DNA of 64,000 nucleotides from Macrostomum lignano. Lineage: Eukaryota. The position numbers and the translations under genes were made by a program. The notes under the pieces are model-generated. The model worked only from the letters and a program-made list of their open reading frames with translations, was not told where the DNA came from and did not search any database. Each line of letters starts with the position of its first letter. Within the stretch, counting starts at the first letter, position 1. The stretch spans positions 186,001 through 250,000 of the forward strand of contig NIVC01000114.1 of assembly GCA_002269645.1 (NCBI GenBank). Direction: 5' to 3'. Below, in pieces: positions 33,963 to 64,000 of the stretch.

Positions 33963-34907
33963 TTAATCTTTTTAATTAGATCAAATCAGGAAGGTAAAAA
34001 TCACAAAGGTAGTTTGGGAAGGCTTGAGTCAAGCTGGCTGTTGAATTTAGTTGTGTAATCTCATTTTAATTTTTTTTTCATTTTATAGGTACGAGCGCTT
34101 TAGCCCTATTCAAGGGCTCTTACGCTAATGATATAATTTGGATTCACGATTAGTATTGGTATAAAGTTTCGATTTTGAATAAAACAAATAGATAATCAAT
34201 CTTAATTTTTTTACAGAATTCAATAAAACAAATAAGAGATTACAAGTATTCTATAAAACAAATTAAGCAATTAAAATAGTTAAAACAGTTGATATTGAAA
34301 TAGGTATTTACATAAAAGTCACAAAGAATCACAAAGCCTAGTGAGTATTTTTGCAGGTGCAAATCTGTTCGAAATTTTTGTTGATTAATATAGTTGAGTC
34401 TGAATGCCACTACTATGAGTAAGTTAACGAAAACGAAGTTTCCGTAATAGTCAAGTCAAATTTTTGAAACTATAAATAGGTCTCTGACTGTTTTTACCCT
34501 GGTTGCCTCTCTGGTAGCTTGTCTAAGGGTTGTGCGCAATCCGATTGGCCTAGCTTCGGCTAGCCCAATAACTAAGGGTCCGCCCCGGAGGGGCTGTGCC
34601 CAGTCTAAAAATAACCCTATTCTTTTTCGTACTCCAATTATTTTGGCCATCGGCCCTGGGTTAGGGGGGGGTGCCCGGAGTGAGTTGGATATCTGGACTG
34701 CAGTGTGGCTAGGACGGGACTGAGCCCCCCGGTCGTACCCGCCCTGCAGGAAAGAATGACCAATTCACAAAGGTGTACGGTAGACCCAGTAGACTGCCAG
34801 CCCTGAGGCTGAGCACCTACATTGATTAATGGCTTTCCTGAATTTAGTCGTGACTGGTTCTCTAAACCCTGGTCTGCTCCAGATTTTTTGATCAGAGTGA
34901 AAGTCAG

Positions 34908-37170: not shown

Positions 37171-37171
37171 A

Positions 37172-37866
37172 TCCTATACAGCTACCCACAGCCCTTCCCG
37201 ATCCACTATTACCCTCCAACCCAGCCTACTCACTCATTACAAGCTTTCAGCCAGGCAGAGACAAGTTTCACAGGAGTGACTGCGGTTAGGCGCCTCTGTT
37301 GTTAAACGAGTGGTGCTGAAGGCACCTCGGGTCAGCCCGGGTAGGGCTCTGCCGATATATTTAAATTTAAAAAAGTTATGCTAATTATTAGTTGTACGAA
37401 GGTTAAAAAATTCGATTTAAATTTATTATGTACGTTTAGGAATAAAAGTGAAGTGTTCGCAACTGATAAAGGGGGGAGCTCTACGGAAAATGGGACGGGT
37501 CCTCACAAAGATATTTTGGACCGAAAAGGGGATCAGCGCGAAGGTTTCAAAGTCAGTATTTAAATATTTATATTTGGTATAAAAGTATAAAATAGTAGAG
37601 TATAAAATAGTAGCTAAGCGGCAGGAACTACTACTAGTAGCAGCCCCTACGCAAAGTATATTGGTTTGGCCTGGTTGGCACATATGACTAAAAGTTTATG
37701 TATAAAAGCGTTATTTGTATATTTGGGTTTTGTCTCGCATAGAGACGCCTAACCGCAGTCACTCCTGTGAAACTTGTCTCTGCCTGGCTGAAAGCTTGTA
37801 ATGAGTGAGTAGGCTGGGTTGGAGGGTAATAGTGGATCGGGAAGGGCTGTGGGTAGCTGTATAGGA
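37172..37866. repeat. 126-bp near-perfect inverted repeat (37172-37297 / 37741-37866) around a 443-bp AT-rich spacer
   Basis: Arms are reverse complements with one mismatch near the inner end. Confidence 0.92.
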
Positions 37867-38559
37867 AGGCAGGCCTATACCTGTACCAAGGTGCTCTGAC
37901 GGTATCCCTCAGGCGCCCTCTGAGCGTACAGCCAGCGACCCTATTAAAGCTAGAGTGTGCCAGAACCAGGACTGAGTCTGAGCAGGACGAGACCGTTGGC
38001 ACGGTCACTATAGAAATGGCGGGTTGGCGAAGCAAAGGTTGAAACAGTCCCGGCGAATAGCCCTCCTGCCGCTTCAAAGATAAGAGACTGTCTGGCAAGA
38101 GTACCCGGGGTCTAGTTGGGGGGGGGGGGGGAGGCTCCTTCGGGTTGCCACGGCCGTGGGGGCGGTCAATTGACCGGTTTTTTGGCTTTACTAACCCAGG
38201 ACTAGGCACGGGCTTCCCTGATTGGTTCTCTCAACCCCACGGGCCTCGGGAGGTTTATGATTTGTACCCGGGGGTAGAGGGGCGGTCGGCCCCAGCATGG
38301 ATGCCACGGCTCTTGGCCTTCGGGCCTTCCTAATAGGCTGAGGGGTCTATCCAACCTGGTTTTTGGGCACGGGCTCCTGACTGGTTCGTCGAACCGCTAC
38401 TGTCCCCCGGGGAGGTTTGGTTTTTATGATTTTGCCCTGTACAGTCCTCTATAGTCTAACTTGGCTTTTAGTGTACATTAGTACACTCCCTATTCAGGAA
38501 ACTTATTTATATCTAGTGGCGTAAGAGCCTATTTCAATGGCTGAGGCGCCGGAGTTACT

Positions 38560-41500
38560 TATTTAGTTAGGTAGTTAGTTAGTTATATTTGGGTTAGGAT
38601 AAAAATAAGAGTAAAATATAAACAAGGCAAAAGCCAGGTGTAAAAGGAGCATTTGCAGTTTTAAATAATTGGATTGTAAAAAGGTAAAGAGAGGCGGAAT
38701 CAGGAAGAGGTCTACAGCGGATCACAGTATCACCAGCACTACTAACAGGTAGGCACAGCTGTTCTTACTGTATGGTTACTGGGTCGTAGGCCCACCCGCC
38801 TGGTCCAGCACTTGCCGCTACCATTCACGCCTATTGTTTATATTAGTTCTTTTGTTTGTGCATTGACAGACGGCTTAGTCCAGAGTAAAAGAGAAGGGAA
38901 GCCACTGTCTTGGGGGCACTCTAAGTTTTTGGGGCAGCTGACCTAGTAGATCTAGGGCGGGTTTTGGGCCGCACGGGCCGCCGCATTTGCAGCAGCTTGT
39001 CTATTTGCTTGTCTCCTCTTCAGGCTGTCCCATAGCAGGTTCAGCACTGGGGGGCGATTGCGGGCAGCTCTAGAGAGTTCCGGCTCAATGAGGAAATCGT
39101 GGTGCCCAGCAGCCTTCACCTTGGAAAGCCAGCCTACGCCCAGGGCACGAATCCTGTCTGCCATCATGGGCATGGCTGCCAGCTCATGCAGGTAGGCTAC
39201 CTGAGTGTAACTAGGGGCACCATAGCAGATCCTAAGAGCTAAGTTTTGGATTTTCTGGAGCTTATTGAGATTACTGGGTGCTATGATGTTCAGCACCGGG
39301 GCACCGTAAGTCAGCGCACTCTCAACATAAGCCCTATATAGCATTTTAAGGGTATTGCTGCTTAGCCGGGTCAGCTTAGCAATGCGGTTAATGGACAGAG
39401 CAAGCGCCCGGCCATGGCTGACTACTCTTTCAACATGCGAGTTAAGAGTCAGCCTGTAGTCCAGGTTCATACCAAGGAACCGGACCTCTTCTTGGTATTC
39501 AAGACTCGAGCCACCAAGTTTCAGCTTGGGGCGAAGATCGAGCCGCTGAGTTGGCTTATAATTGAATGCGATAACCTGACTCTTGCTGGCGTTGATCTTA
39601 ATCCCCTGCCCCCACACCATTTCCACACGCGGTCAAGGTAGGGTTGCAGGAGTGTCTTGAGGCCAGCAAAGGAGTCCGCCGAGGCCCAAATGGCCATATC
39701 ATCGGCAAATTGGCTTCGCTTAAGATTTGGTTGTGCTGGCCGAGGCATGGTGCTGATAAAGAGCAGGTACAGGAAGGGGCTCAGAATGCCGCCTTGGGGG
39801 ACGCCCGCCTGCAGCTCCTACGGCTGGCTGAGCTCCCAATTTACCTTCACCTGCATTAGCCTATCTGCTAGGTAGTCAGAGCAGATCCTGACGAGGGCGT
39901 CCGGCGTGTTGACTTCATACACCCTGAACCTCAGGTAGTCATACCACACCGAATCAAACGCCGCTTGTACGTCAAGGAGGATGGCCAGAATCCTTTTTAG
40001 TTTAGCTTTGCCCACCTGGACGTCCTGGACGAGGCGGGCAAGATTATCATAGGTTGAGTGGACCTTCCGGTACGCACATTGATCCGCGCCGAGGATACCC
40101 TGGCCCTCAAGATGCTTCATCAGCCTCCCCACCAATAGTTTCTCAAAGACCTTACCGAGACAGGAGGTCAGGCTGATGGGCCGATAGGATCTCGGGGATT
40201 CAGGAGGTTTTTCAGGTTTAGGAATCATCGTCACCACCGCTTTTTTCCACTGCGATGGGAAGATGCCCGTACGATAGCAATCATTGAAGAGTTTAGTGAT
40301 GCGGGTGACCGCAATGGGCTCCAGGCCACGTTTAAGGACGCAGTTCGGAACTTTGTCTAGGCCCGAAGCACTATCAACTTTTAGGTGGTCCAGCTCCCAG
40401 AGGGTGTCTGTAACAGAAAACGGAGCCTCCAGGGGGTGGCCCATGTATGGATCTACGCCTGAGGGAACTGGTCTAAAGATGGGGAGCTTTATAGCCTGCT
40501 CAACCCTCTTCTTCAGATCCTCATCGGTCGATGGAATCGGGCGCATTTTCACATCTAGTGCTCTCGCTAGCATATCAGCTTTATCTTAGTATGTATGTGC
40601 GAGGGTGGCGCCATCATTCAAGGACGGAATAGTGGTGCCCTTTTTGCGCCCCATCAATTTTTTTGTGTCCTGCCAGAAGTCCTTGACATTCCGGCATTGA
40701 CTTTTTTCAACTATTTTCTCGCACATTTGGGTAAACTGGCCTTGCTCAAACGAATGAATAGCGCTTTTTATTTCATTCGCCTTTCTATTCGCGAGCAGCC
40801 TAAAATTTTCATCCCTGGTACTGTGGTACAGACGCCGGAGCTTCCTCCTCTCCTTGATCATGGCAATGATCCTCTGGGGGAGGGCTCTACGGCCTTTTCT
40901 GACCGGGACATTTTCCTAAATGGTTTTCTGGATCGCATTCGTGATGACGTCGACCTCCGCATCAATTTGCTGCCTAATACTAAGGTCTGGAGGCCACGCA
41001 TATACCAGTTTTTCCATCAAGGAATTTTGGAAGTCTTCCCAGTTAGCTTTGGCGAAGTTTCGAGCCTTCTCTGGCCCTTGCCAGTCTGGGGAGTTACTCG
41101 CCAGGGTGAGTATTATTGGGAGGTGGTCACTGTCCAGGTCAGAGCCATGAACATATGAGACGAGGTCGCCGGAGGCTAACCCAAGGTCAAGCACATTCCG
41201 GGACACAACGCCTTGCCGGTGGGCTATTCTAGTGAACTGGCCTGGTTGGTTGAGAACGGTGGGGCGGTGGGATGGATCGCCGCAGAGCCAATCATGGAGC
41301 TGCTGTCCTGCTCTGTTGTTGCGACTTTCACCCCCCCAAGAAGCTGTGTCTAGCATTGAGGTCTCCCATGATGAGCGAGTATTTTGCCGAGGACAGCCTC
41401 GTCAAAAGTCCGGTGTCGAGGTTGTCCGGCTACGGGGACCGATAGACCAGGGATAGTTGGAAAGGTGGACATGCGCCGTCAACAGGAGTGACTGTGCAGG

Positions 41501-42430
41501 TAAGGACCTCATGGTTGACGTTGTCGTACGAGAGCTGGACGTCTGCTACCTTAACCCGTGGGGTGTGAACAAGGAGTCCGCGCTTCGTATTCGGAAGGTC
41601 AAACCGCACTGCAGCATAGCCCGGGAAAGTGCATACTTGGGTATTTTTCAGAATGGCCTCAGAAAACAGCGCAATATCCAATTTCTGGTCTGAGACCCAG
41701 AGCCTGAGTTCTTTTAGTTTCGGTATTACCCCCCTGCAGTTTAAGTGGCCGATCTTAAGCCCTGAGGCAGTGGGGTTCGAGCTATCGTGCCCGTTATTAC
41801 CGAACATATCTATCCTATATTATTCTAGGTCTGGCCACCCGCCTGTCGCCGGGAGGCGCCAAGCAGCTGACCAAGGCCTTGGTGACTGTTCGATTCGCCT
41901 TCGAGGACCCAGGCCAGAACCCTACTTACTACGTCCTGCACCGTTTGACGGGAGCTTTCGGTAGTAGGCGGCCGTTCAGCCGAACTCTGCCAGAGAGTCG
42001 ACAGCACCTCAACAAGTGCCTGGACCATGAGGGGAAGGAACCCACTCACCAGTCCCTGAAGCTGGGAGACCTCTGGCAATTGGCGGCGTGTCATTATTAG
42101 AAGATTCATCCGGCCCAATTGTCTGCGTCTCCGAGTCAGTCGATTCGCGTACAGGGCGCTTTCGGCTAGGGAGGCTTGGGCCGGTAAGCCATGATGAGTC
42201 GTCATCGCCTCCTGTCGCCATTGGCGCCCGTGCTGCGGCGTCGGCCGATCTCGATGCTGCCGCCGGTGCTAGTCTCAGTGCGGGGGCGAGGGGCGCCGCT
42301 GCTGCTGCCGCCGATGCTGGTGCTATAGCTGCCGCTGCCGCTACTGCCGCAGTGGGTGGAGGAGCGATCGACCTGTCCATAGCTGCCGCTGCTTCTTGGG
42401 CGCCCGCTGCGTAGTATGGCGGTCCAAGTT
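38560..42430 (-). mobile_element. Second Jockey/I-group LINE (APE-RT, no RNase H seen), 5'-truncated in ORF1, ORF2 frameshifted
   Basis: LKIGHLNCRG, DLDSDHLPII, YRPISLTSCLGKVFEK, LLDVQAAFDSVW, QFADD, YLGM-like RFLGMNLD; stop at 38952; (TAAC)n-like tail at ~38560-38585. The ORF1 C-terminus resembles that of the 34908-37170 LINE. Confidence 0.93.
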
Positions 42431-43338: not shown

Positions 43339-44515
43339 TGTGATAAATACAATATAAATATATTGCATGCACGATAAGCAATTATTTAGGCCCTAGACAA
43401 ACCTACTTGGAGCGTCAGAGATTTTAAAGCTGTTGGCCCTAATTGCCTATCGCCGGTCGGCGAGTTCTACCAGTCTTCTCCAATAGCCGCAGGTACAGTA
43501 CAGGAAAAGAAAGAACACGAGGGAACACGAACCGAAAGATTTAGAGAGTGATAATCCTATGTGATACAAACTGATAATTGGCTAGACGATTTAATTTGAT
43601 TACTCAAGTTACAGGATTCAAGCAATTCGCGACGCAGATAATTAGACTGATGATAACAAATAATAACGATTAATAATAATGATTATATTACGCACTGACA
43701 AGCGGATCTCAGCTGAGAAGAAGAAGAAGGAGGCACCGAACACAGGACCACGGAGAAAGACTCCTAACCCCTGGCCTAAGCCAGAACCTACACTCAAACG
43801 AGAGCCCTGCCGAACCGACCGTTCAACGGAGTACCGACTAAATTCTATCGGCACTGCCCTTCAGTGTAACACTGAGGCCCTCGGGGTCGAGGCCGCGTAC
43901 TTGATCAGATCCGACAGTCTATCTAACCCGCGCTTGATAGCGACGACTTCAGACAGGAATTTGCCGTAGACGTTACGCTACAAGACTGAAGCGGTTGGGC
44001 GGGGAACAAAGTATGGACCGGGGTGACGAAATCAAAACGCCTCAAAGCGCGAACCAAAGGAAAAAGGCCACCGGCCGGGAACTGGACAAGACAAAACCGG
44101 GGAAAGGGAGAGAGCGAGATCCGACTGCCAAAACACACTTTCATTTATAGTCAGAGTCACAACCCCTCAAAACCCCCCTCAAGCCGGGTGGTGGTCGTCT
44201 GGCCGGCCGCCCACTAAGCCGATTTGCACTGTGCCCGCGGCGCCGGGTAGAATTGAAACTTGCCACGTGCCAGGGTCCAGGCCGGTTCTGATTGGCTGGC
44301 CGCGCAAAGCTGGGGTTCGCAGAGAACTCAACCCTCCGCTGAGTCACAAATGGCGTCTGACTTCTAACCTGTTTACGCAAAATTGATTCTAACTAACAAG
44401 AAAAATGTACACCAAAAACGTATGACTAAACTAAAGCAAAATAACACTTCAATAACTATAATGCAAAACCTAACTAATAGAATACAAGGCTATCGCAAAA
44501 GATGCTCACACTACA
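43339..44515 (-). mobile_element. LTR (1177 bp), probably a 5' LTR; same family as 61569-62757
   Basis: TG..CA ends, long identical runs with the 61569 copy, CCAAT (~44290) and TATAAA (~44148) on minus; no TSD; PBS-like sequence on the low-coordinate side. Confidence 0.85.
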
Positions 44516-45210
44516 AATCCCTCAGATCCTCGACAGCCGGATGCCATTTTTCATTTGGTTCTAGAGGTACGCCCGAGTACGAATATCCTGGGCCGAACCA
44601 CACAACTTTACGCTGCTCATGAGGCCGGTGCCTGATCGCCTTTGGCAAGAGATCGGCAATGAGGCAGTCGTAAAGCTGCTTGGAGACTGACTCAATAAGC
44701 TTAGGATAGTATTCTAGCACAACGTCGCCGTAGCGCTGGATATTTTCACCGGTGCGGTCCGGGTGAATAGGGAAGCCGATGGGATTGCGGAGATACTTGG
44801 CGTTGTCCTCATCGACTTCATTTTCCACAGCGTCGCGACTGTTCGAGCTATTCGGATCAACATAGTGCGCGTCGTTATCTTCAGCATCAAGGTCGACGTT
44901 TGCAGCACGTACCAAATCGTCCTCGCCGGAGGCTTCAGATGCTGGGACGGATGCGGCTGCATTGGGGTCTTCGGAGCCGGCTTGGCCAGCTCCTTCCAGT
45001 ACAGTCGCAGAGCCGCTGTCCGACGTATTCGATGTGGCACTGCCCGATGACCTGTGCTGCTCTGCCGTGATAGCGAGGACCGGAGACTTTGGAATTGTGG
45101 ACGCATTGATACAGCTTGGTTGCTCTGCAGGTACTTCGGCTGGATTCGGCATTGAAGCCGGCGTTGCTACATTTGCCTTTTCCCTGGGAGATGGTAATAA
45201 TCGTATGCTC
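44516..45210 (-). pseudogene. Fragment of an AlkB-like 2OG-Fe(II) dioxygenase (acidic linker plus N-terminal part of the domain), cut by the LTR
   Basis: GDVVLEYYPKLIE...EQRKVVWFGPGYSYSGVPLEPNEKWHPAVEDLRDL matches the ALKBH2/3-type pattern R.V.W.G..Y.YSG...P..W.P....LR. The stop codon is supplied by the LTR (TTG TAG). The HxD...H catalytic part is absent. Confidence 0.62.
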
Positions 45211-45966
45211 ATTGCCACATACATCTGTGGTGTGTGGCTTAACCACAACGCAGCGAAACATAGAATAGAAAATCCTGAAGAAACTATTAAATGTAAAAGT
45301 TGTGATGATCAGGTTTTGGAGTTTTTGCAACGACATGGGATAACATATGCTAAAAGCACCATTAGAAAAATTCTGTCTCTTAGTAAAGCATTACATGATT
45401 ATCCTCGTTTTTTTTAAGCTAAATATAACATTTGAGGAACTTTACACCTTAAAAAATGATATTGAAGACATGTTAATGTGTTCGCTTTAATATAAAACCT
45501 ATTGAAGCATGGATGTTATTAAAATAAAAAAAGAATAGTAAATGAAAATAGTAAATATAGTAAATAAATACAACTTTTCTTTTATTTTCTTTATCTTCTT
45601 AATAATTTTCGCATTCGCTTTCATTCTCATCTTCTCTTCTCTAAATCTTCTTCTTCTTTTTCTTCTTCTTCTTCTTCTTCTTCTCCACTCTTCTTTTCTC
45701 TTCTTTAAATCTTCTCCTTCTTGTTTCAGACAAGTTAAAAAATTTTCCATTTTTAAAAGGAAAAAGAAAGTAAGGAGATTGCTAATATCAAATTACTTTT
45801 TTCTTCTTTTAAAGATGCGCGGGCTGTAGCAGCGGCCTTCGAGTGGCACCCTGTGTGAGTACCAAATTTGAAAAACTAACTGCTGCTCAAAAGTATCATG
45901 TCATTCATTTATTTTTCTTTTGCTGTTATTTTCTTAAAAAGTTTCTCTTGAATTTTCTTGCTTGAA

Positions 45967-46417
45967 TCATTCTGCTCTCTCAACCCCCAACTCTTTCAGC
46001 AGTCTTCCTAGTTCTTTACTTGGCGCGTGCAATGCAAAACCCACCCAACCCTCGCCGCCAACCCCCAACTCCAACTTTGTCTTACCAAAAATAACAGCTT
46101 TAACTAGCTTCCGAGCGATCGATTCCTTCCACCCGCTTAAAGTCCCCATATTGTCTAGTCTCCTAAGCATTTCTTTGTCCCAGCGATTCTTCTCCTCAGT
46201 AAAATCTCTATATTTAACGTCGTGCCACATGCAGACAGAGTCTAGCTCGTTCACAGGCTCATGCCCAGGATTTGGATTATTGTTTTTATCTAACTGTATT
46301 TCAAGTGGATTCAAAGGCCCACAATATTTGTAGCCGGGAATCGTCCAGCCTTTGTTTGGATGAGAAAGCTTTTCTATCAGTCCATGTAAATCTATTTTAC
46401 CACCAGAGCGTTGCGTT
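45967..46417 (-). pseudogene. Parvovirus-type phospholipase A2 domain protein (PLA2X-like)
   Basis: QRSGGKIDLHGLIES/(frameshift)HPNKGWTIPGYKYCGPLNP...PVNELDSVCMWHDVKY contains the Ca-binding loop YCGP and the catalytic HD. Confidence 0.85.
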
Positions 46418-46445
46418 ATTTTATTTAAAATTTTATTTTAAAAAA

Positions 46446-47443
46446 ATGACAGATCAAAAACTTCAAAAGCTCTACTATAGTGACAAAGGATTCTTTGTAG
46501 GAAAAAATGCAGTCGCCAAACTCGCAGAACTAAGTAATGAATCAAAAGCTACAGTAGAAAAGTGACTCTCTAAGCAAGCAGACTACCAAGTCTATTTCCC
46601 ACCTGTTCAATTTACAAGACCTCACTTTAGCATCTATAAACCTAATGAGGCGCACCAAGCAGATCTTCTGTTTCTCCCCAATGACTCAGGCTACAAGTAT
46701 GCTCTCACAGTTATAGACATTGCCTCCAGATATAAAGAAGCGAGACCGCTTAAGACAAAGAAGTCAGAAGCAGTTGCAGCCGCCCTCCAAGATATATTTA
46801 TAAAAACTCACTTCTAAGTTACCCTGAAATCTTTATGACCGACCCGGGTAAAGAATTCCTAGGTGCGGTGAAATCACTTCTACATAAGTATGACACAAAA
46901 ATTCGCTACGGAAGAACTGAACTCCACAGAGACCAAGCATACGTGGAAAGATTCAATCTAACTCTAGCCAAGAGACTATTCACTAAGCAGACAGCTGAAG
47001 AGCTGAAACTAAAAAGTGGCCAATACTATACCAAGTGGACAGACCGCCTCCCCACTGTTATAGAGCAACTGAACAATGAAGTCACACGCATGACTGTATT
47101 GAAACCGTCCCATGCAATTAAACAAGACACTGTCGAACTTAAGGCATCTCATAGAACAGACACCTCGAACTACCCTAAGCTTCCAGGAGTTGAATCACCA
47201 TACATACTGACAAACTCAGAGTTTTTACGCTTTTTATATCTACCTGGAGAGCTAGAGAAGGACACCAAAAGAAGAGCTACAGATCCATACTTCAGCCTTG
47301 ATGTACATAAAATAGACAGACATTTTACCTCCAACTCTGGAGAGTATTACTTTTTATCTCAGGCCTTTAACCCTAAATCCCCCACGCGGTCATTCACTAG
47401 AGCTGAACTCCTAGTGATACCAGCTGACACAGAAATTAATTAA
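46446..47443 (+). pseudogene. Retroviral-like (rve) integrase
   Basis: HQADLL, YKYALTVIDIASRY, MTDPGKEF, YVERFN (D-D-E). TGA at 46563-65 and a frameshift before 46835. Confidence 0.95.
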
Positions 47444-47459
47444 AATATTAAAATAAGAA

Positions 47460-47906
47460 ATGACAAAGATTGAAACCAGAACCATCAATAAACTCAATAA
47501 AATCATTGAATCAAAGAAACCAGGTCTTATATCAATTAAAGGTGCCAAAGTAAAAATCGATCCCATACAGCAAATAGTTCAATATAATGAGCAAAGACAC
47601 AGCATCACAGATGAAAAGTCAGGAGGAATCCTACCATTAGCAGCTCTTATCCCAATCATTGCAGGCGCTGTAAGTGCCGCAGGTGGTGTAGCTTGAGGTG
47701 TAGCAACTGCTGTTAAAGCTGGGAATGATAGAGCTCACCAGCTAGAATTGCAAAAGATTGCAAGAGACAAAGGTATAACAATTAAGGCAGGAGATGGTTG
47801 CCCTGATTGTGATGCTTGTGAGCATGAAAATTCTGTAAGCAAGTCTGACATTGTCAAAGCAATCATGACACTGCACAATGCTGGGTTTACAATAATGCGC
47901 ATGTGA
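47460..47906 (+). pseudogene. Small virion core/membrane protein, adenovirus pX-like
   Basis: KSGGILPLAALIPIIAGAVSAAGGVA*GVATAVKA: one in-frame TGA, and the frame stays open 70 codons beyond it. Confidence 0.6.
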
Positions 47907-48030
47907 TGAGATTTAAAATCCCATTTTATCCAGCTTCATAAACCTAACGCTACTTATAGGATGTAGAAACAGTTCAACTTTTCTATCAGGATTGTCACCC
48001 TCAAAATTTTTTTTATATTTTAGAGAAAAA

Positions 48031-51000
48031 ATGCCAAAGCCAATCCAACAAAAGATTTAGTCAACAAATATTTTTCAAAAGGCGTCTCCTTTCAAGACAA
48101 AAGTTATTTACTAAGAAAGCATGTAAACAAAAGTTTAACACCGACCATGGTCACCTGGGAAGCTATGAAAAACAGTTGGAAATCATCAATTAATTAGAAT
48201 CCAACAGTATGCGCCTATAAAAAATCCTGCAAAGGAACACCAAGAGAGGAGTCGCAACTTAGTTAACAAATGCGAAACTCTCACTGGTGAAAAAGCAAAG
48301 TACCCACAAAATAAGCAGGAAAAGAGAAATTAGAGCAATTAATCCATTTAAAAGAGTCGGAGCTTGCCATTGAAGAGATTAATTTTGCACAGAGGAAGTT
48401 TACAGAACATTACATAGAGTACACAATCCCGATTAACAACACCAACGGCACCAACCAAGTTAACGACACCAACGGCACCACTGCAAACATCTACGACTAT
48501 AAAGACATCATCCAATCAGTTGTTGATCACACACTCAAAACACGCAAGACCTTTAAACTACAGATATCATTCAAGATTGCGTTTTATATGCCTGCAAAAC
48601 CTACTGAGCATCTCGAGTATTACATGACAACAAAGGCAAAGCCATTCACCCCTACAGACACACTGGATCCTTTCTTCAAGATGTCACTAAGAAAATTGAA
48701 GCGTTTACATCCAGAGGTTCCGGATGGGTCGTGGGAGGATTCAAAGAGCGACTGTCATGGTCATGAAATATGACCCACTTAAAGCCTCCTCTTATATAGA
48801 GCTCCCGCAAAGCTAGCCGGCAAAAAGCTTGCATAAATGTTAAAAATAAAGACAATTGCTGTGCTCTATGGGCAGTTCTTTCTGCACTTCTTCATGATAG
48901 TGTCCCTCACCACCCCGAAAGAACCTCAAATTATCAAAATTATTTCAACTACTATCTCATTGAATGCGAAAAGAAGGGAATCAGGTTTGACAAAGCAGGC
49001 TTGGCGATTTCTCAGATCCCTAAGCTAGAAGAAGTGTTTAATAACAAAATTAGAATCACAGTCTTTGAGTGGAGTGAAAAAACTGAGAAAGTTCAACCGG
49101 TCAGATGTAGCAAAGACGTTTTAGATCCTGAGGGGAAAAGGCGGACTGAAGTGGATCTTCTAGTGATTGGTAATTTACTAGAGGAGGCTCACTATGTTTG
49201 GATTAAAGATCTTTCAAGACTCATTCACAAGCAGTTGAATAATCATCACGAGGCTGTTGCCATCTGCCGCTTGTGCCTTAAGCATTACAGTGGACCTGAG
49301 CGCTTTGAAAAACTAGCAGAGCATGAATTATCATGTGATGATCACCCAACCAACTGCTCTCTTCCTTCAGCTGAAGAGAAGTATCTCCGGTTTAAGAACT
49401 ATCACAAGATGAAGAAGCTCCCATTTGTTGTATATGCTGATTTATAATGCTCAATCATGCCAGAAACTCAAAAACAAACTCAAACTCAAAAACAAACTCA
49501 ATCAAAAACAAACTCAAACTCAAAAACATGTCCCCAATTCAGTAGCATATGCCTTTATTAATACAAAAGGACTTGTTGAGTATAATTATTTCTTTGGAGA
49601 GCAGTGTGTGGAGCAGTTTATTGCCAGAATGTTAGAGTTGCAAAAAGTGATTAGCACCCTTCAACCTGTTCCAATAATGATGACTGAGGAGGATGAAAGC
49701 AATTTCCTATCAGCAACTCATTGCCACATCTGCAGGAAACAGTTAACTTGCACTGATATTAAAAACCCCACCGTTAGGGACCACTGCCACTATACTGGGA
49801 AATTTAGAGGTGCAGCGCATAACACCTGTAATCTAAAGCTAAAATCGAACATTCATGATCTAACGATATTTGTCACAACCCAAAGAACTATGACATGCAT
49901 TTAATAGTTGAAAAAATCGGCATGATTCCAGACATACACCTTGACTGCATCGCAGAGAACAAGGAGAAGTTTAAGTGTGTTGATATTAAACAGGATAACT
50001 CGGGTGAAGGTAAGATAAGACTGAAGGATTCATATCAATTTCTTGCTGCCAGTCTAGACGAACTAAGCAAGAATCTAAAAGATGAACAATTTACATATAC
50101 AAAGATGTTTGCAAGTAAAATTAACAACACTGATGAATCATTTAAACTTTTAAGAAAGAAAGGCTTCTACCCTTATGAAAATATTACTGGGTATTCAGTA
50201 TTTGAACAAGGTTTACCACCACAGGAGAAGTTCTTTTCAAAGCTAACAGACTCTGGAATCTCTGACAAAGACTATGAGCACGCGAAGCATGTCTATAATT
50301 ACTTTAATTGTCAAAACTTCTTCCAGTATCACCTGCTTTACCTCTTCACATATGTTTTTCTGCTGGCTGATGTGTTTGAAACCTTCAGATACACCTGGTA
50401 CACAGCATATGGCCTCGATCCAGCACATTATGTGTCTCTGCCTGCCACTAGCTGGGAATCTTTGCTTAAAATGAAATGGGATCAAGATCCAGATTGGTAC
50501 ATTGAACTTCTTACAGACATTGACATGTACAATTTTGTCGAATCGTCAAAGCGAGGGGGATCTCAATTTGCGTTAACGGGTATGCAAAAGCAAACAATCC
50601 CTACATTGAATCTTACAATAAGGAGCAACCCTCAAACTACATTACTTGGACGCTAATAATCTCTACGGGTGGGCGATGAGTCAAGATCTTCCAGTTAGAG
50701 ATTTTCGATGGCTACCCTCATCAGAACTAAAGTGGGACTTTTCATTGGCTGCCATTTATGAGGTTGATGTTTATATTCCACCAGAGCTTCACGACTATTT
50801 CTCTGACTTTCCACCCTTCCCAGAGAACATCAAGTGTCCGAAAATAATCAAAACTCCCAATGGAACTTGGCACCTGTCAGGAACAGAAAAAGAACATACA
50901 GAGAAACTAACACAGAATCTAAACAACAAGACACGTTACAAAATCCATTACAAACTGCTTCATTATTTTATCTCACTTGGTTGCAGGGTAACCAAAGTTC

Positions 51001-51911
51001 ACCGGGCTCTTACATTTACAGAGGAAGCGTGGATGAAACCCTACATTGATAAGAACACCCAGTTTAGGACCAAAGCAACCAACGACTTTGACAAGAACCT
51101 CTTTAAGTTGGCCAACAACTCTGTCTATGGCAAGACTCTTGAGAATGAGCGGAAAAGAACAAACCTGAAACTTGTTACCTCATCAGAGCCTGCTGTTATT
51201 CAAGCAAATATGTTAAAGCCAACATTCAAAGAACTCCATATCTTTAATAGCTACTTAGGTGTGATCATATTTTACAAAACCAAGGTGACGCTGCGCAAGC
51301 CGATCTATACAGGTGTCACTGTACTCGACGAATCAAAACGTCTGATGTACCAGTTCCATGGCATGAAGCAGCGGTACAATGATAAAATGAAACTCTTGTA
51401 CACTGACACAGACAGTTTTATTATGGACATTCAAACAGAAGACATTTATCAGGACATGCTGCAGCAAAAAGATTTGTTTGACTTGTCTGAGTATGATGAA
51501 TCTTGCAGGACGCTGAATGGCGATCAAGTGTTTGACGCCACTAACAAGAAAGTGATTGGGAAAATGAAGGACGAGATTGCTGGTGACATAATCACTGAAT
51601 TCATTGGGTTGAGAGCAAAGTCCTATTTTGTAAAATGTGAGTCGTCAGACCCAATTAAAAAATGAATGGGAATTCCGAAACGCGTGGTTAGCAAGGAAAT
51701 TAATGAAGCTGAATACAGAGACGCCTTGAAATGCAACAAAAAGACATCACATGAGTTCTCAAAGCTACAATCTAAAAACCATAATATTCACACAATTCAG
51801 CAAAAGAAGATTGGACTGTCAGGTGCAGATAACAAGAGATTCATTTTTGATGACAATATTAACAGTCTACCGTTCGGGCATTGGAGATTAGGTTTAGGAG
51901 GTTGGGTTTAG
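48031..51911 (+). pseudogene. Protein-primed family B DNA polymerase (several frameshifts and stops)
   Basis: RDHCHYTGKFRGAAHNTCNL, DSYQFL, KGFYPYE, YGLDPAHY, DANNLYGWAMSQ, KLANNSVYGKT, YTDTDS, IGKMKDE, EFIGLRAKSY. Confidence 0.97.
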
Positions 51912-51974
51912 GAGGTGGAGGTTGGATATAGGTTTAGGAGAAAGTTTAATAAACCTCATAAAAATGACATAAAA

Positions 51975-52369
51975 ATGACTACAAATAACTTTCTTGAAGA
52001 TTTGGCTAACTAACTGGAAATCCCAAACTTTAGAGGAATATTTATGAGGGACACTCTGCCAGATTTTCCTCTAAGAAAGGAATGCGGCATCATGAACTTT
52101 GACACCACCGATAAACCAGGATCTCATTGGGTTTTCTGGGTGATTGATCCCGATCGCAAGCACAAATGTTATTACTTCGATAGCTATGGGACGGCAGTAC
52201 CAGAAGAGCTAAGATATGAAGGGAAAAAATAAAAAAAAATTATCGCTCAGACTTTATTCTCCAAGGTCTTAGCAGTGATATTTGCGGTGAGCTGTGCATG
52301 ACTGTTTTGTATGCAATGACCAAAACACGAAAGACCTACAAGGAAATTATTCTTGGTTGTGTTTCATAG
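51975..52369 (+). pseudogene. Adenain-like cysteine (maturation) protease
   Basis: FRGIFMRDTLP, GSHWV (catalytic H), YFDSYG (D) and, after a frameshift, QGLSSDICGELC (Q, C); TAA at codon 13. Confidence 0.93.
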
Positions 52370-52373
52370 GGGT

Positions 52374-53041
52374 TCATTGTGCATTTCTCGTCGTCCTTCT
52401 TGCCGAATTTCTTGCCGACTTTCTTTCCACATAATGTTGAAGAAAGTTATCGAGTTCATTTCTCAGCTGACTCATGTCATCAGTACCGACCATGTTCAAA
52501 TTCATTCGAATTGATTGTTCATAAAGATCCTGAATGGTTTTGAACTCATCCTCTGAAATGGACTTATCCTCGATTGCCCTTGAAATGTACCCTATGATTG
52601 AAGTGTGCACCCCTTTCTCTTTTACTTGCTTCTCCTGTAGCTGCTTTAGTTTTTTTCGCCTGTTTCGCGCTACTGCTCCAGTAATTGCTGAAATAAGTCC
52701 ACATGCAGCACCTACTGAACCAAGTGGAATTGCGATTGGGACTGTGATGGCTGGCAACACTGAGACAGCTGCAGCAGACCCAGTTAGAACAGACACAGAT
52801 CCTAGAATCATATTGCTGTAGTCGAAAAAATTACAGTGGCTATTATAGCGCTTAATTTTCTTTGTGTTGTGGAAAGTATTTTTTCAAGATCATCGCGCAT
52901 TTTTTGAATCTCCACCAGTCGAAACTGCTGAGAGTTACATGTGATGACGGGGTAGAGTTTTTGCTGCTCATATTGGGATGCACTAGGTGCTGTGGGTGCT
53001 GTGGGAGCGTTCGGATCATAAAGATAATTTTGAGCATCCAT
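52374..53041 (-). pseudogene. GasderminX-like / DUF-type hydrophobic membrane protein of adintoviruses
   Basis: LYP...QQFRLVEIQKMRDDLEK, then (after a frameshift) a G/A-rich hydrophobic hairpin and RAIEDKSISEDEFKTI. This layout is typical of the family; recognised by pattern only. Confidence 0.7.
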
Positions 53042-53290
53042 TTTTTAGGGAATTTTTAAAAAAAATCGACAACTAGTTGGTGGTGGTTAGATTTGTTTTA
53101 CGTTTGGTTACTTTGTCTGCAGTGACGGCAACGGGTCTATTCGAATCTGCCTATTCATTGTCTGTGAGCTCCATTCTACGTCTGATCTCAAACAAGTCGG
53201 TTGGATCACTTATTTCCCTTGTGGTCTGTGGTGCCTCTTCAGCGTCAATGTTTTTGAGATTATGCAAGCGCTCAAGACGACCGATTCTTC

Positions 53291-53644
53291 TCACCGATTT
53301 CTGCCATTCGGTAAAATTAAATCTACAAAGACTTTATTTGCAGTAATTCTTACTTTGATTTGATCATGCAACGCTGTTGACTGAGTCATGAACTCTTCTA
53401 AATTCCTCACTTTAACTGTGTTTGTGAAAACTCCTTCTTCAAGAATGCGCATCCGCCTATCAATGGAGTTTCTCAGAAGATTAATTTTCGATGTCAACCC
53501 GTAGATTTGCGAGACCGCCGAAGTTATTTCTGACCTAAGTTCATTAGTTGCGTGTACAACCTGTACATAAAGCTTATCACTTTCAAACTTCTGCCTGGCT
53601 ACTTTTATGCGGAGATCTTCTATGTTTATCTGTAGCTGGTGCAT
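53291..53644 (-). CDS. Hypothetical coiled-coil protein of the Polinton (probably longer before decay)
   Basis: 117-aa ATG ORF with heptad-like composition, co-oriented with its neighbours. Confidence 0.5.
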   Translation of the reverse strand: MHQLQINIEDLRIKVARQKFESDKLYVQVVHATNELRSEITSAVSQIYGLTSKINLLRNSIDRRMRILEEGVFTNTVKVRNLEEFMTQSTALHDQIKVRITANKVFVDLILPNGRNR

Positions 53645-53812
53645 GGAGCGCTCTAATGGTTTCAGTCTGTTTTTATTCAGTTTGATCTCTGGGATCTCTT
53701 CGTCGCTGTTGATATATCGCCTGTCTAGGATGGATATTTGAGCTGATGTAAGAGCGTTGTTGCCAGAAATGGATCACCTGCAAAACTGATAGAAATCTTT
53801 TAATAGCAAATT

Positions 53813-54613
53813 TTAAATTACAGTTCTTTTTTCTTTGCTGATAATCACAAACTGGTAAGGTTGATTCCACTTGTCATAGCAAAGATTAACGAATTCCTCC
53901 TGTGAAATCTTTCTGTTTGAGTTTTTTGTTGGATTTATAAAATAGGCAGGCGCAATGACCTCATTCTAAAATCTTTTTAAACTGTCCTGTGGAATGGTTT
54001 GAAACAGGAGAATCAGATTGCAGTTCCCACGAATTGTTTTGTTTGGGAGCTCGAACCAATTCTGTGCAATGTAAATTACATTACAATTGTTATGTCGTCC
54101 TCTTGTAAAATAGTTTTCTATCTGCTTCTGTGGGCCTGTCATACAATCATCAAAGACGATCAAATGTTTTCTCCCCTTTTCTACCTCATCTGGTTGGAGT
54201 AGAAGTTTGGTCTTTGGATCAGCATGTGGATCTCCATAGGTGAACACCTTAATGTTCTGCCATTTTTCATTGTCTTTGAGGTGCTTTGCATATTCAGCAG
54301 CTACAATTTCTGGGTTACTGGGAAGGTTTTGTTGGTTATTTAAACATGCAATAATGTCCACTTTATGCAGTTTGTTTTGCAATCCAGAAATCAGCATTTT
54401 ATACTCATCTTGATACAGTGTGGGAGAGTAGATGTGCAGAGTGTCATAGTCGATAAAGCCAGGTCTAAGAAGCATGTTAAAGACTTTGAATGTTTTACCT
54501 GAACCTGATGAACCAACAACAATGCATCTGAAGTGACTCGGGATTGACTCATGATGAGAAAACTTAATCTGATTACGCGTCCAGTGAGGATTGAAGTCGT
54601 TTGAAAAGTCCAT
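53813..54613 (-). pseudogene. FtsK/A32-like DNA packaging ATPase
   Basis: Walker A GSSGSGKT, Walker B LIVFDD, TRGRHNN, IAQNWF, IRGNCN. One in-frame TAG at 53966-68, then 51 further codons ending EFVNLCYDKWNQPYQFVII...VI*. Confidence 0.95.
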
Positions 54614-54654
54614 TTTTTATGATAAAAATTTTTTTAAATAATAAATCATTTAGA

Positions 54655-54735
54655 TGTGTCGTTTTGGGACTTGGATGTGTCATTTTGGGACTTAAATGTG
54701 TCATTTTGGGACTTGGATGTGTCATTTTGGGACTA
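54655..54735. repeat. 21-bp tandem repeat x4 (ATGTGTCATTTTGGGACTTGG) upstream of the ATPase
   Basis: Directly visible in an intergenic spacer. Confidence 0.85.
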
Positions 54736-54776
54736 GTCTTGTACCTTTACATTTCTTGTACCCTCGGAAAGTACCT

Positions 54777-55166
54777 TTAGTCAAATTTGAAACCACTTCC
54801 TTTTTTAATGCTAGCTCTCATCTTCTCATAGACTGCAAGGTCCACACTGTCTGTATTTGAGGCCAGCGGAGCCAGCGGGGCCAGTGCAGGTTGAATCTTT
54901 TGTTTAGGTGTTACAGTATCCTTTATTTTTTTGGCTGCTGTGGCTACACTGCCAGCCGCTTCGGCAACGTTCTTGATGTTCTCTTTGTTCTCTCCAATGA
55001 CCTTAAAAATCTTGGCCCCCTGAGCGATCAAATCGGCAAGGCCATTCCCAGAGCGTTCTTTTCTTGGATAGTGGCCTGCAGGGAAAAGTCCAGATCCGCG
55101 TTTCATGAGATTAAGTTCCTCTTTGTCATAGTATTTGTCAATGTCTTTTTCGAAAATAAGTGGCAT
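54777..55166 (-). CDS. Small basic Polinton protein with repeated GxG motifs (putative virion core precursor)
   Basis: Intact 129-aa ORF containing KRGSG-LF, RSGNG-LA and KKGSG-FK. Confidence 0.6.
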   Translation of the reverse strand: MPLIFEKDIDKYYDKEELNLMKRGSGLFPAGHYPRKERSGNGLADLIAQGAKIFKVIGENKENIKNVAEAAGSVATAAKKIKDTVTPKQKIQPALAPLAPLASNTDSVDLAVYEKMRASIKKGSGFKFD

Positions 55167-55914
55167 TTTTTACTTGAAATAAATTGTGTTTGTTGAACCG
55201 CGAAAGCAGAAGCTCTCTCGCCCTCTTATCGATGTATTTTCTCTTAAGCATTTTGTCCAGGATGTTGACAAATTCTTTTCTATTCTCGTCTTTCATTCCA
55301 GTCTTTGCCGCTCCTAGAAGAACCGCTACTCGCTTGTAGATTTCAGAAATTCCTTTTCCAGTTGAGGGCGGTTGGTCTTGGGGTTGTGGAGTTGGTTGGG
55401 CTTGTAGCTGCTGGGGAGGTGATGCAAAAGACTGCTCACTTTCAGAGATAGAACTGTCATGTGGTGCCTGTCTTTGTTGAGGTGTGAAAACTCTTTGATT
55501 GATTCTATTCATTCGATCTGGGGAGATATTTTCTAGTTGTTGCCAGGCATCTGGGTGATCATTTTTATATTTAGCTACTTGAGCCGGATCTGCATTTTCC
55601 AGTTTCCTGAGTACTTCTGTAAAATTTTGTTGCTGTGGTTGTGGTTGTTGTTGTTGCTGTTGTTGTGGTTGCTGCTGTGGTTGTTGTTGTGGTTTTGGTT
55701 GTTGTCTTATGACCTCTTCTTGATCCGGCAAACCAAACCATTGTTTAAAGTATTTGTATTTTCTAAACCTGTTCAAGACAATCCCGTTTTCATGTAAAAT
55801 TTTCAAAACACCGTTGTTCTTGAGCATATCTACGTCCCTATCGAGAGCAAAGGTAACAAGATCTTTGTAATTTTTGAGCTGCTTTTCAGACGTTTTCTCT
55901 AGATTTTTAGTCAT
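55138..55914 (-). CDS. Gln/Pro-rich Polinton protein (258 aa) with a conserved-looking C-terminal helical motif
   Basis: Open ORF; the C-terminus ISEIYKRVAVLLGAAKTGMKDENRKEFVNILDKML resembles the R..LL.G...G....E...I...L motif seen in Polinton ORFs. Confidence 0.6.
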   Translation of the reverse strand: MTKNLEKTSEKQLKNYKDLVTFALDRDVDMLKNNGVLKILHENGIVLNRFRKYKYFKQWFGLPDQEEVIRQQPKPQQQPQQQPQQQQQQQPQPQQQNFTEVLRKLENADPAQVAKYKNDHPDAWQQLENISPDRMNRINQRVFTPQQRQAPHDSSISESEQSFASPPQQLQAQPTPQPQDQPPSTGKGISEIYKRVAVLLGAAKTGMKDENRKEFVNILDKMLKRKYIDKRARELLLSRFNKHNLFQVKNATYFRKRH

Positions 55915-55919
55915 GTACT

Positions 55920-57060
55920 AGCAATCTACGCCCCCCGTTGGGGAGCCAAAGAAATGCAATGCACGTTTTTTTAATAAGCTACATGTATCCTTGAAATCCT
56001 AAAAAAATCTCCTGTCAAATCTTGTAAGCCTTGACATGTCAGTAATCCCCCCAACAAGCTTTAACATATCAACTTCCCCCCTTGACATCTCAGCAATGCC
56101 CCCAATAAGCCTTGGAAATATAAAAATATCTGTCAACCTTCTAACCCTAACGCTAGCCTAACCCTAACCCTGACCCTAACCCTAACCCCAACCCTAAGCC
56201 TAACCCTAACCCTAACCCTAACCCAACCCTAACCCAACCCTAAAGCATTGAAATTTCAGTAATTCTCTCTAAGAGTCATTATAGCACTACTACAGCATTA
56301 TAGCGATTCCCTGCAAGCCTCAACATCGTAGGGATTCCCAAATTTCTTAAAAAATCTCTTAACTTCGACATGAAGCTTCTTTTATTTTTTACATTACGCT
56401 TTTTTTATCAGCAGTCCCTCCCCTGAGGAGGCATCAAATAATGTAATAAAAAGTTTTCAATAAACTACATGTAGCTTCTGACTTTAGCCTTGAAATCTCA
56501 TTTATACCCCCGTGAGCTTTGAGATCTCAGCTATTCCCCCCGTAAGCCTTGACATGTCAGCGATGGCCCCCATAAACCTTGAAATCTAAAAAATCCCCTG
56601 TTAACCTTGAAACCCGATAAAATATAACCCTCAACCCACACCTGACCTAAACCTAACTTTAACCCAACCTAAAGCCTTGAAATCTCAGCAATTCTTCTCC
56701 CCTAAGCCTAGACATTTTAGTGATTCCTTCTTTAAGAATCACAGCACTATAACGATTTCCACCAAGCTTTGACATCGTTGCAATTCCTAAATGAATCTTT
56801 TAACTTTGACATGACTTTTATTTTGTGTATAAATAGTGCTACTTTTATTTTTACATGACTCTTCTTCTATCAGCGCCCCCCGTGGCGAGCCAACAAATAA
56901 TGCAATAAAAAATTGAGTAAAGTACATGAACTTTGAAGTAGCTTCTGACTTGCTTTGACATCTCAGAACCCCCCCCCCCCGTAATCTCAGCTTCTGACTT
57001 TTGCTTTGACATCTCAGAAACCCCCCCGTAATCTCAGTTATTCTCTGACAGCCTTTACGT
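55920..57060. repeat. ~500-bp tandem module (about 2.2 diverged copies) at the right end of the Polinton gene array
   Basis: Blocks recur in order, e.g. CCTTGAAATC(C)TAAAAAATC.CCTGT, AGCA.TATA.CGATT.CC, TATCAGC..CCC.CC..G..GAG.C.ACAAATAATG.AATAAAAA, GTAGCTTCTGACTT. Confidence 0.75.
56141..56243. repeat. Interstitial telomere-like (TAACCC)n block, ~17 units
   Basis: Mostly perfect TAACCC with variants; a more decayed block sits at ~56625-56670 in the next module copy. Confidence 0.9.
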
Positions 57061-61568: not shown

Positions 61569-62757
61569 TGTGATAAATAGGCAATTAGATAATAGCATGC
61601 ACGGTAAGCAATTATTTAGGCCCTAGACAAACCTACTTGGAGCGTTCGAAGATTTTAAAGCTATTAATCCTAATCGCCTATCGCCGGTCGGCGAGTCCTA
61701 CCAGTCTTTCTCCAATAGCCGCAGGTACAGTACAAGAAAATAAAGAACACGAGGGAACACAAACCGAAAGATTTAGAGAGTGATAATCCTATGTGATACA
61801 AACTGATAATTGGCTAGACGATTTAATTTGATTACTCAAGTTACAGGATTCAAGCAATTCGCGACGCAGATAATTAGACTGATGATAACGAATAGTAACG
61901 ATTAATAATAATGATTATATTACGCACTGACAAGCGGATCTCAGCTTGAAGAAGAAGAAGGAGGCACGGAACACAGGACCACGGAGAAAGACTCCTAACC
62001 CCTGGCCGAAGCCAGAACCTACTCTCAAACGAGAGCCCTGCCGAACCGACCGTTCAACGGAGTACCGACTAAATTCTATCGGCACTGCCCTTCAGTGTAA
62101 CACTGAGGCCCTCGGGATCGAGGCCGCGTACTTGATCAGATCCGACAGTCTCTATCTAACCGCGCTTGATAGCGACGACTTCAGACAGGAATTTGCCGTA
62201 GACGTTACGCCACAAGACTAAAGCGGTTGGGCGGGAACAAAGATATGGACCGGGGTGATGAAATCAGGCGCCTCAAAGCGCGAACCAACAAGAGAGGAGA
62301 AATCGGGCCACCGGCCGGGAACTGGACAAGACAAAACCGGGGAAAGGGAGAGAGCGAGATCCGACTGCCAAAACACACTTTCATTTATAGTCAGAGTCAC
62401 AACCCCTCAAAACCCCCCTCAAGCCGGGTGGTGGTCGTCTGGCCGGCCGCTTGCTTAAGCCGAATTGCACTGTGCCCGCGGCGCCGGGTAGAATTGAAAC
62501 TTGCCGCGTGCCAGGGTCCAGGCCGGTTCTGATTGGCTGGCTGCGCAAAGCTGGGGTTCGCAGAAAAACTCAACCCTCCGCTGAGTCACAAATGGCGTCT
62601 GACTTCTAGCCTGTTTACGCAAAATTGATTCTAACTAACAAGGAAAAAGTACACCAAAAACGTATGACTAAACTAAAGCAAAATAACAATTCAATAACAA
62701 TAATGCAAAACCTAACTAATAGAAAACAAGGCTATCGCAAAAGATGCTCACACTACA
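61569..62757 (-). mobile_element. Solo LTR (1189 bp) with 4-bp TSD
   Basis: TG..CA ends, AGTA on both sides (61565-68, 62758-61), highly similar to 43339-44515. Confidence 0.9.
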
Positions 62758-62874
62758 AGTAGCAAAAATAATTTATTGTAATTAATAAAAAAATTAATTA
62801 CAATTAATAAAAAAATGTTCAAAATAGTCCTGGCAGAAGCTACTAATGAATGAATTTATTTAATTTTAATTATC

Positions 62875-62965: not shown

Positions 62966-63552
62966 AGGGCGCAAAAATCAGCCATATATGCTTCGGCACT
63001 GCAGTCAAATACATAGCAGTGATAGGCTGCTCAGTGTGCACAGGTTGTGTGCAGGCAGAGCCAATGCACAGTTGAGTGAAATCTATAAATAGCAATTGTC
63101 TATGCAGTCCGCCAGTCAGCCAGGGTCAGAATGTACACACGCAGCCACTGAGCATTATTTTCCTCTCCTTTATTGCAGCCAGTACTGACTCCCTTATTGA
63201 GTCTTCACGTACACAGTGAACAGATAAAAGTTGTGGCGCAATCTTAATTGGAATTGAAATTCAGTTAGTAAGATTTTGACCTTTTCTAGCCTCCAATTGA
63301 AAGCTTTGGGAAAACTCGTTTTTCGAATATTTAACCATCTTCCCATTCGAATTTTTAAATGCAATTACACCCACACAATCTCACAAGAATTTGCAATTGA
63401 ATGAAGCAAGTTTGAAAAAAATCGGTTCAGGCATTCAGGCTGTAGACTGGAATACCGGTCAGACAGACAAACCTTAGAGATTCAGTATATTGTGATGATG
63501 ATGATGATTCTTTTAGTTTTTGCGCCTTTATTGATTGAAATATTTTCCTTTG

Positions 63553-63963
63553 TCACTTCCATGTTGTAATCCGCTGGTTCCCTGTAATATATTTTCGCCA
63601 GGCGCTAATTCCAAAAATATATTTTCCATCATCCACTACGGGACCAAAAAAGTTATCCGTCACTTTCATCTGCACCGGTTGTGCTTCTGGTTGTCCTGGT
63701 TCCTGAGCCTGTGGTTGTCCCGGTGAAGATGGGATTTTACCCAATGTGTTTTGCAAGTGGCTCTCTTGAATATCATCAACTGCTTCCTTCACAGTGTCGA
63801 TGTTTTTCTTCGCTTCTGTGTATCCAGGTTTGTGAAATTCGGTGGCTGCTTGGACGAATTCATGGTAAGATTGTTGTTCTTTGTTGATTAGTCCGGTTAC
63901 TCGTTTCTCTGCTTGTGCTAGCTTCTCCAATTCAGATATCTGCTGTGTACTTTTTCGCTCCAT
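63553..63963 (-). CDS. Hypothetical protein, Polinton-like in style (136 aa, probably truncated)
   Basis: Intronless; charged helix, then QP-rich linker, then FGPVVDDGKYIFG. Composition resembles 55138-55914 but no alignment is evident. Confidence 0.4.
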   Translation of the reverse strand: MERKSTQQISELEKLAQAEKRVTGLINKEQQSYHEFVQAATEFHKPGYTEAKKNIDTVKEAVDDIQESHLQNTLGKIPSSPGQPQAQEPGQPEAQPVQMKVTDNFFGPVVDDGKYIFGISAWRKYITGNQRITTWK

Positions 63964-64000
63964 TTCTTATTTTATTTTATTTTTAGTTAAAAAATGAACG

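Follow-up and report, generated by a model that had tools for sequence, protein, structure and literature searches.

Introduction

The described systems closest to the element considered here are the Polintons, or Mavericks, and the adintoviruses. Among vertebrate Mavericks 96% are defective, according to the available part of one account (PMC8097293). In the part of the adintovirus description at hand, a parvovirus-like PLA2 is tied to Alpha-class virion modules, as is PLA2X, and GasderminX, a gasdermin C-domain homologue with a pX-like tail, belongs to the Beta-class virion module (PMC8502044); both in one element would therefore be unexpected. Some Polintons have an HNH-containing protein-primed DNA polymerase B (pPolB), and the accessible portion of their description places the insert in nematode and oomycete elements (10.1101/2023.08.22.554363). 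An element of this kind lies in the right-hand part of the stretch analysed here, called the window throughout: 64,000 nucleotides of Macrostomum lignano (contig NIVC01000114.1, hereafter C114, positions 186,001 to 250,000 of the forward strand).

A first-pass annotation of the window had described an adintovirus-type Polinton at 45.2-57 kb with no capsid genes. We have little doubt that the sequence from 45,189 onward belongs to a single decayed member of a Polinton (Maverick, adintovirus-type) family that encodes capsids and measures ∼16 kb, and that in this copy two later insertions have shifted the capsid genes just past the right edge of the window. The stretch holds an ordinary Polinton in a broken copy, not a capsid-less kind; its capsid genes seem absent because the window edge cuts the element at 63,994-64,000. 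Open reading frames (ORFs) were read in six frames, and a Pfam profile search was made on 24 ORF pieces of the gene cluster. The next 19 kb of C114 were added beyond the window; extended positions are C114 positions minus 186,000.

One copy interrupted twice

Six-frame ORFs and Pfam matches define a Polinton-type gene cluster at 45.9-55.9 kb. DNA searches find its sisters in the same genome at 92-94% identity, and the full-length sisters (∼16 kb) have capsid genes at their right end. The copy at C869:388,047-404,037 is 15,991 bp long, with terminal inverted repeats (TIRs) of 638 bp at 92.8% identity, AGTAG..CTACT ends and a 6-bp target-site duplication (TSD), GAGATT. A 16,060-bp sister in C2059 has TIRs and the TSD CGCATG, and a third, in C2787, has TIRs and the TSD GGCAGG. 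These are the sister copies with TIRs, 6-bp TSD and capsid genes for which the first-pass annotation had proposed a search.

Without a 7.6-kb insertion and a nested 14.3-kb Polinton, the copy is colinear with the full-length sisters, and colinearity across both insertions holds against C869, C2059, C2080, C1664 and C2787. The copy spans window position 45,189 to extended position 81,716 (C114:231,189-267,716). Minus both insertions this interval amounts to ∼14.6 kb; adding back the lost 1.65 kb of the left end gives ∼16.3 kb, the size of the sisters. The right TIR (C114:267,089-267,716; 92% over 637 bp) ends at extended position 81,716, and the left TIR is absent, removed by the deletion at the left junction.

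The proposed end of the element at ∼57 kb is not borne out: its sequence breaks off at 55,917 and continues from ∼63,507. The gap is filled by a 7.6-kb repeat inserted on the minus strand (55,918 to ∼63,495), whose Helitron-type ends show CTAG and a GC hairpin on one side and TC on the other; no TSD was seen. Helitrons have a 5′ TC, a 3′ CTRR with an upstream hairpin and an A/T target, and leave no TSD. An A stands before CTAG in six of six other copies of the insertion; the hairpin is visible, and the other end is approximate. No Rep/helicase gene was seen in the 7.6-kb insertion, which holds a 2.2-kb, 23-bp satellite (57-59 kb) and other repeats. The CTAG end and hairpin fit a Helitron-type insertion, but both the Helitron identity and the exact right boundary are putative.

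The family is abundant, clustered and often rearranged (C27, C1604, C2787, C1098), which would suit a reading of the locus as two separate partial copies, one (45.2-55.9 kb) representing a left half and the other (from 63.5 kb) a right half. The halves, however, have the same orientation and meet inside one gene: on the sister map, window position 55,914 is element position 4306 and window position 63,507 is element position 4277, only ∼30 bp apart. The intervening DNA has the two ends of a high-copy repeat at its borders (at least 40 and at least 41 matches), and no TIR or TSD is seen at either inner edge. Two partial copies are for these reasons very improbable, and a single copy opened by a later insertion is preferred. 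The gene that was split is a Gln-rich ORF of ∼400 aa on the minus strand, with its 3′ part at 55,138-55,917 and its 5′ part, where the Polinton resumes, at 63,507-63,963. The sequence from 63,507 to 64,000 is matched in 30 of 30 capsid-bearing loci.

Capsid genes of the copy and of its family

The gene for the double-jelly-roll major capsid protein (MCP) begins within the last 7 bases of the window (63,994-64,000, plus strand), which hold the start codon and the first bases; tblastn places residue 1 at 63,994. The body of the gene, with two frame changes, follows at C114:250,001-251,151 (to extended position 65,151), with 93-100% identity to the sister MCP in tblastn. There the gene is interrupted by a nested second Polinton of 14,316 bp (C114:251,152-265,467), which has AGTAGT ends and a perfect 6-bp TSD, CCTACT. 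Beyond it, at extended position 79,468, the last 45 MCP codons resume. By sister comparison the MCP tail and an uninterrupted 287-aa penton-like ORF occupy C114:265,468-266,488, all 287 residues of the latter aligning at 94% identity to the sister without a stop. With the sister's two capsid ORFs as queries, tblastn found no match in the entire window below E 1.4. The statement that no capsid gene lies within 45.2-57 kb therefore stands, but the element itself is not capsid-less, having an MCP and a penton-like gene from 63,994 onward. The apparently missing capsid is a window-edge effect that leaves the earlier finding without importance, and nested insertions that can shift half a Polinton out of a 64-kb window call for caution in scans.

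The MCP of this copy matches PF21738 at E 0.0029. At the right end of C869, the equivalent of the region to the right of the window, a 399-aa open frame is followed by a 297-aa open frame; the first of these, the sister MCP, matches PF21738 at E 1.5e-5 (24.8 bits, cut-off 27), and the domain is found in 9/9 of its homologues. A single-sequence fold of the sister MCP (pLDDT 32.5) was discarded and replaced by a model from a 10-sequence alignment (pLDDT 58, pTM 0.58). Foldseek searches with this model returned the capsids of Sputnik, mavirus and PBCV-1 on top (E 1.3e-8 to 7e-7, TM ∼0.3), and in VIA-align double-jelly-roll capsid or scaffold proteins filled the top 13 rows (best Z 9.2, rmsd 6.5, 258 aligned). 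The sister MCP is thus predicted to fold like the capsids of virophages and nucleocytoplasmic large DNA viruses.

A genome search with the sister MCP found at least 104 loci (the best 104 of 650 candidates were scored), all 104 at 97-100% identity and 103 with no stop within the match. The penton-like ORF lies beside the MCP in each of 30 fetched loci and is uninterrupted in 27. The 287-aa ORF is called penton-like, a candidate minor capsid protein, by position and size only. Among metagenome contigs none of 106 pattern matches to it was confirmed; it is absent from the Atlas and shows no similarity to the candidate penton of the nested element (E 2.0). For pPolB, scored genome-wide in the best 117 of 1,120 candidates, 4 matches lie in an open frame of at least 1,150 aa without a stop in the match. 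The difference in intactness between pPolB and MCP (4/117 vs 103/104) is only a lead, both lists being best-score selections and pPolB three times longer.

The nested Polinton represents a second family, with a 1,112-aa pPolB frame, an integrase, an ATPase and a protease-like ORF. It also has a TBP-like gene (PF00352, 73.9 bits), a PC4-like ORF, and a 457-aa capsid-like and a 262-aa ORF, neither of which has a Pfam match.

The left junction

Comparison with C45 and C2059 identifies the left junction (45,189-45,195) as a deletion at a short shared AGATG (microhomology). Of the 46 matches to window 44,300-46,100, 16 begin exactly at 45,189. The paralogous locus in C45, which aligns with both flanks, has an extra ∼8.6 kb at the left junction, made up of a retroelement and the Polinton left arm with part of its TIR. 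The C2059 equivalent of what lay left of 45,189 measures 1,656 bp and comprises the TIR together with the 5′ half of an accessory ORF of 255 aa. The 3′ half of this left-arm ORF, recognised by sister comparison, survives in broken form at 45,189-45,517 (plus strand). Judged from these alignments, the deletion cost the element ∼1.65 kb, namely the left TIR and one half of the accessory ORF, and did not touch a capsid gene. Among the matches listed in the stretches from C1604, C869, C27, C187 and C2059, no capsid gene lies left of PLA2, apart from the penton-like 3′ remnants described below.

The first-pass annotation had explained its capsid-less element as a lineage whose capsid module was lost at the left junction, or which borrowed capsids in trans. 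The left end is truly deleted, and 45.2-57 kb contains no capsid match, as this explanation supposes. Left of the junction, however, the colinear sisters carry nothing but a TIR and accessory ORFs, the capsid genes of this copy are at its right end, and a genome with at least 104 near-identical MCP loci, nearly all without a stop, does not fit a lineage living on capsids in trans. Next to no credence is left for either form of the explanation, and the locus is better read as a broken copy of a capsid-encoding family.

The left arm varies within the family. The stretch from the left TIR to PLA2 differs between copies (L009:7067-7381; left arms of C27, C187, C869 and C2059), and the left arm of C1604 has a RING-finger ORF (PF13445, 38.5 bits). 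In the left arm of three sisters, the 3′ end of the penton-like gene stands next to the TIR (L021:4710-4878; L018:8128-8296; L009 ∼7600-7659), which looks like a lengthening of the inverted repeat by sequence copied from the right end.

History and condition of the copy

Two features might point to an assembly artefact, with unrelated pieces wrongly joined across the 57-59 kb satellite: the 2.2-kb array itself, and the lack in C45 of everything from the satellite to the right end of the nested element. This reading has hardly any chance of being correct. In C45 the left part is still linked to the MCP tail, penton-like ORF, TIR and flank found here (96-98% identity), and a false join would not bring the genes back into register within 30 bp.

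Several points nevertheless weigh against one capsid-encoding copy. Its own TSD is not checkable because the left end is deleted, and whatever is placed beyond 64,000 depends on the assembly of contig C114 being right. The Pfam score of the MCP is below the curated cut-off, and the structure model has only middling confidence; the penton-like ORF has neither a profile match nor a PDB sequence match. The family is described here at the level of sequence.

The events at the locus would have begun with integration of the Polinton, followed by the Helitron-type and nested-Polinton insertions. Duplication of the locus would have come third (C45 has the same junction at 55,917 and resumes at the right junction of the nested element), and separate deletions in each duplicate last. 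The present copy is a dead relic, with breaks in the genes for integrase, pPolB, ATPase and capsid and only one of its two TIRs left. From established Polinton biology, an intact member of the family would insert by its own integrase, giving the 6-bp TSD, and its linear DNA would be copied by the protein-primed polymerase from the TIR ends; the ATPase and protease would serve packaging into double-jelly-roll capsids. PLA2 would aid membrane entry, as in parvoviruses.

Genes at 45.2-55.9 kb

The first-pass annotation had named an integrase, pPolB, protease, packaging ATPase, parvovirus-type PLA2 and pX in 45.2-57 kb. All are borne out by Pfam and ORFs, the protease weakly, and the assignment to the Polinton/adintovirus type is supported. 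Most genes have one or two breaks, in agreement with the ‘one to a few lesions’ per gene reported earlier, but this does not extend to pPolB, which is in at least six ORF pieces.

The parvovirus-type PLA2-like gene (45,967-46,437, minus strand) matches PF08398 over 45,970-46,437 on that strand with 52 bits against a cut-off of 23.9 (E 8.6e-14), and its ORF has both YCGP and HD. No match to PF05829 (pX) was found on the PLA2 ORF at E ≤ 0.1, a search in which Pfam may miss a divergent pX. A stand-alone pX-like core-protein gene with one in-frame stop lies at 47,460-47,906 (plus strand; PF05829, 26.9 bits, cut-off 25). Between the two is the retroviral-like integrase (46,446-47,443, plus strand), with one in-frame stop and one frame change; its match to PF00665 (E 5.8e-6) covers an 83-aa piece and at 26.9 bits is below the cut-off of 32.6. 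The integrases of the sisters are natural 345-aa ORFs.

The pPolB gene (48,036-51,911, plus strand) has an EndoVII/HNH-like insert. The polymerase matches PF03175 with 29.2 bits (cut-off 25.8) and the insert PF02945 with 28.5 bits (cut-off 23.6); the N-terminal pieces, where an adintovirus polymerase can have an OTU domain, have no Pfam match. An adenain-like (C5) maturation protease with one frame change follows at 51,975-52,366 (plus strand). Its PF00770 match, on a 72-aa piece, is weak (E 0.008; 16.3 bits, below the 21.3 cut-off), and His, Asp and Cys motifs are visible. The A32/FtsK-type packaging ATPase (53,816-54,616, minus strand; PF04665, 28.9 bits, cut-off 22.8) has a premature stop, and in the sisters it is a natural 266-aa ORF. 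Two further minus-strand ORFs were recognised by sister comparison: a broken coiled-coil ORF at 53,151-53,785, which received no family label in the Pfam scan, and a small conserved ORF with GxG motifs at 54,777-55,169, which we infer to be core-protein-like.

The protein that had been called GasderminX-like is encoded at 52,374-53,044 (minus strand), with one frame change. It belongs to a conserved family of ∼200 aa with a coiled coil, a hydrophobic hairpin and a basic patch; 202 relatives were found at E ≤ 0.001, and 8 matches in an earlier search. Gasdermin is absent from the Pfam matches of 9/9 members, from PDB searches at E ≤ 10 with profiles of 9 and 70 sequences, and from the Atlas neighbours of one homologue, and the GasderminX identity is unsupported, though not disproved, by these comparisons. 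One Atlas neighbour cluster of that homologue is mostly viral, with Preplasmiviricota commonest, and among 10 relatives checked for names none of the clusters was named. Longer, fused forms of the protein were not found at E ≤ 0.001 among 1,664 candidates, which is weak evidence. The 70-sequence profile had its best PDB match in AopB (E 0.0021), within the coiled-coil and hydrophobic part; this was not accepted as homology.

The left flank

Directly outside the Polinton lies a retroelement piece (44,511-45,195, minus strand), an ORF with matches to non-Polinton loci. A related ORF heads the endonuclease/reverse-transcriptase element in the extra stretch of C45. From its motif we take the fragment in the window to be AlkB-like. 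A 1.2-kb high-copy repeat is present in two copies, at window 43,339-44,515 and at 61,569-62,758, the second within the 7.6-kb insertion. Further to the left, 28,512-28,942 and 30,097-30,264 have weak matches to the sister element (66% identity with its integrase region; 72-80% with a subterminal repeat) and are possibly the remains of another Polinton, going by these similarities. The motifs at 31,131-31,871 are presumably those of a Tc1/mariner-like transposase ORF, and those at 34,638-41,819 we assume to belong to several endonuclease/reverse-transcriptase fragments.

Palindromic derivatives of the family

Four close, divergent capsid pairs were examined, in C1652, C276, C633 and C1098. C1652:28604-39932 and C276:289398-300645 are one palindromic insertion present twice, and the arms in C1652 measure 4,707 bp at 99.85% identity. 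A second palindrome, C633:134497-147607, has arms of 4,854 bp at 99.3% identity. The palindromes end at TIRs and have 6-bp TSDs, CATCTA for C1652/C276 and CCACTG for C633. The arms of both consist of a TIR, the penton-like ORF and the MCP. Integrase and PLA2 are missing from both; pPolB is absent in C1652 and only its 3′ end is present in C633. The pair in C1098 was ruled out as a clean palindrome, its arms being 85.6% identical.

One tentative explanation is that the family amplified recently through particles and yields snap-back defective genomes, copied and integrated in trans, which would correspond, among Polintons, to the defective-interfering genomes of viruses. The palindromes may also be rearrangements after integration, in which case the TSD would be kept too. 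If they arose before integration, they would record replication as linear DNA primed at its ends. Palindromes moving in trans would be the mirror image of the earlier idea of capsids supplied in trans. A limited literature search found no description of snap-back Polintons, which does not show their absence from print. A young, high-copy Polinton family with mostly uninterrupted capsid genes makes this host a reasonable place to seek natural Polinton particles.

Comparison with known systems

The family shares with the Polintons/Mavericks, as set out in the available part of PMC8097293, an integrase, pPolB, ATPase, protease and major capsid gene, and TIRs with AG..CT ends and a 6-bp TSD. Its size of ∼16 kb compares with ∼17 kb for the vertebrate Polintons of that account, and the vertebrate core set further includes the genes pz and pw. 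Most Polinton/Maverick copies described there are defective, and the copy in C114 is likewise dead. In contrast with those elements, the family here has extra accessory genes, in the form of PLA2 and a variable left arm.

The likeness to adintoviruses, taken from the portion of PMC8502044 at hand, extends to PolB, integrase, adenain, FtsK-type ATPase, a hexon-like capsid, a parvovirus-like PLA2 and a pX-like protein. The family differs in that PLA2 and pX appear to be separate genes rather than a PLA2X fusion, and in that no gasdermin similarity was found in the Pfam, PDB and Atlas comparisons. With the HNH-containing pPolB2 Polintons, in the accessible portion of their description, it shares the EndoVII/HNH-like insert (PF02945) in pPolB, a likeness by domain only (10.1101/2023.08.22.554363).

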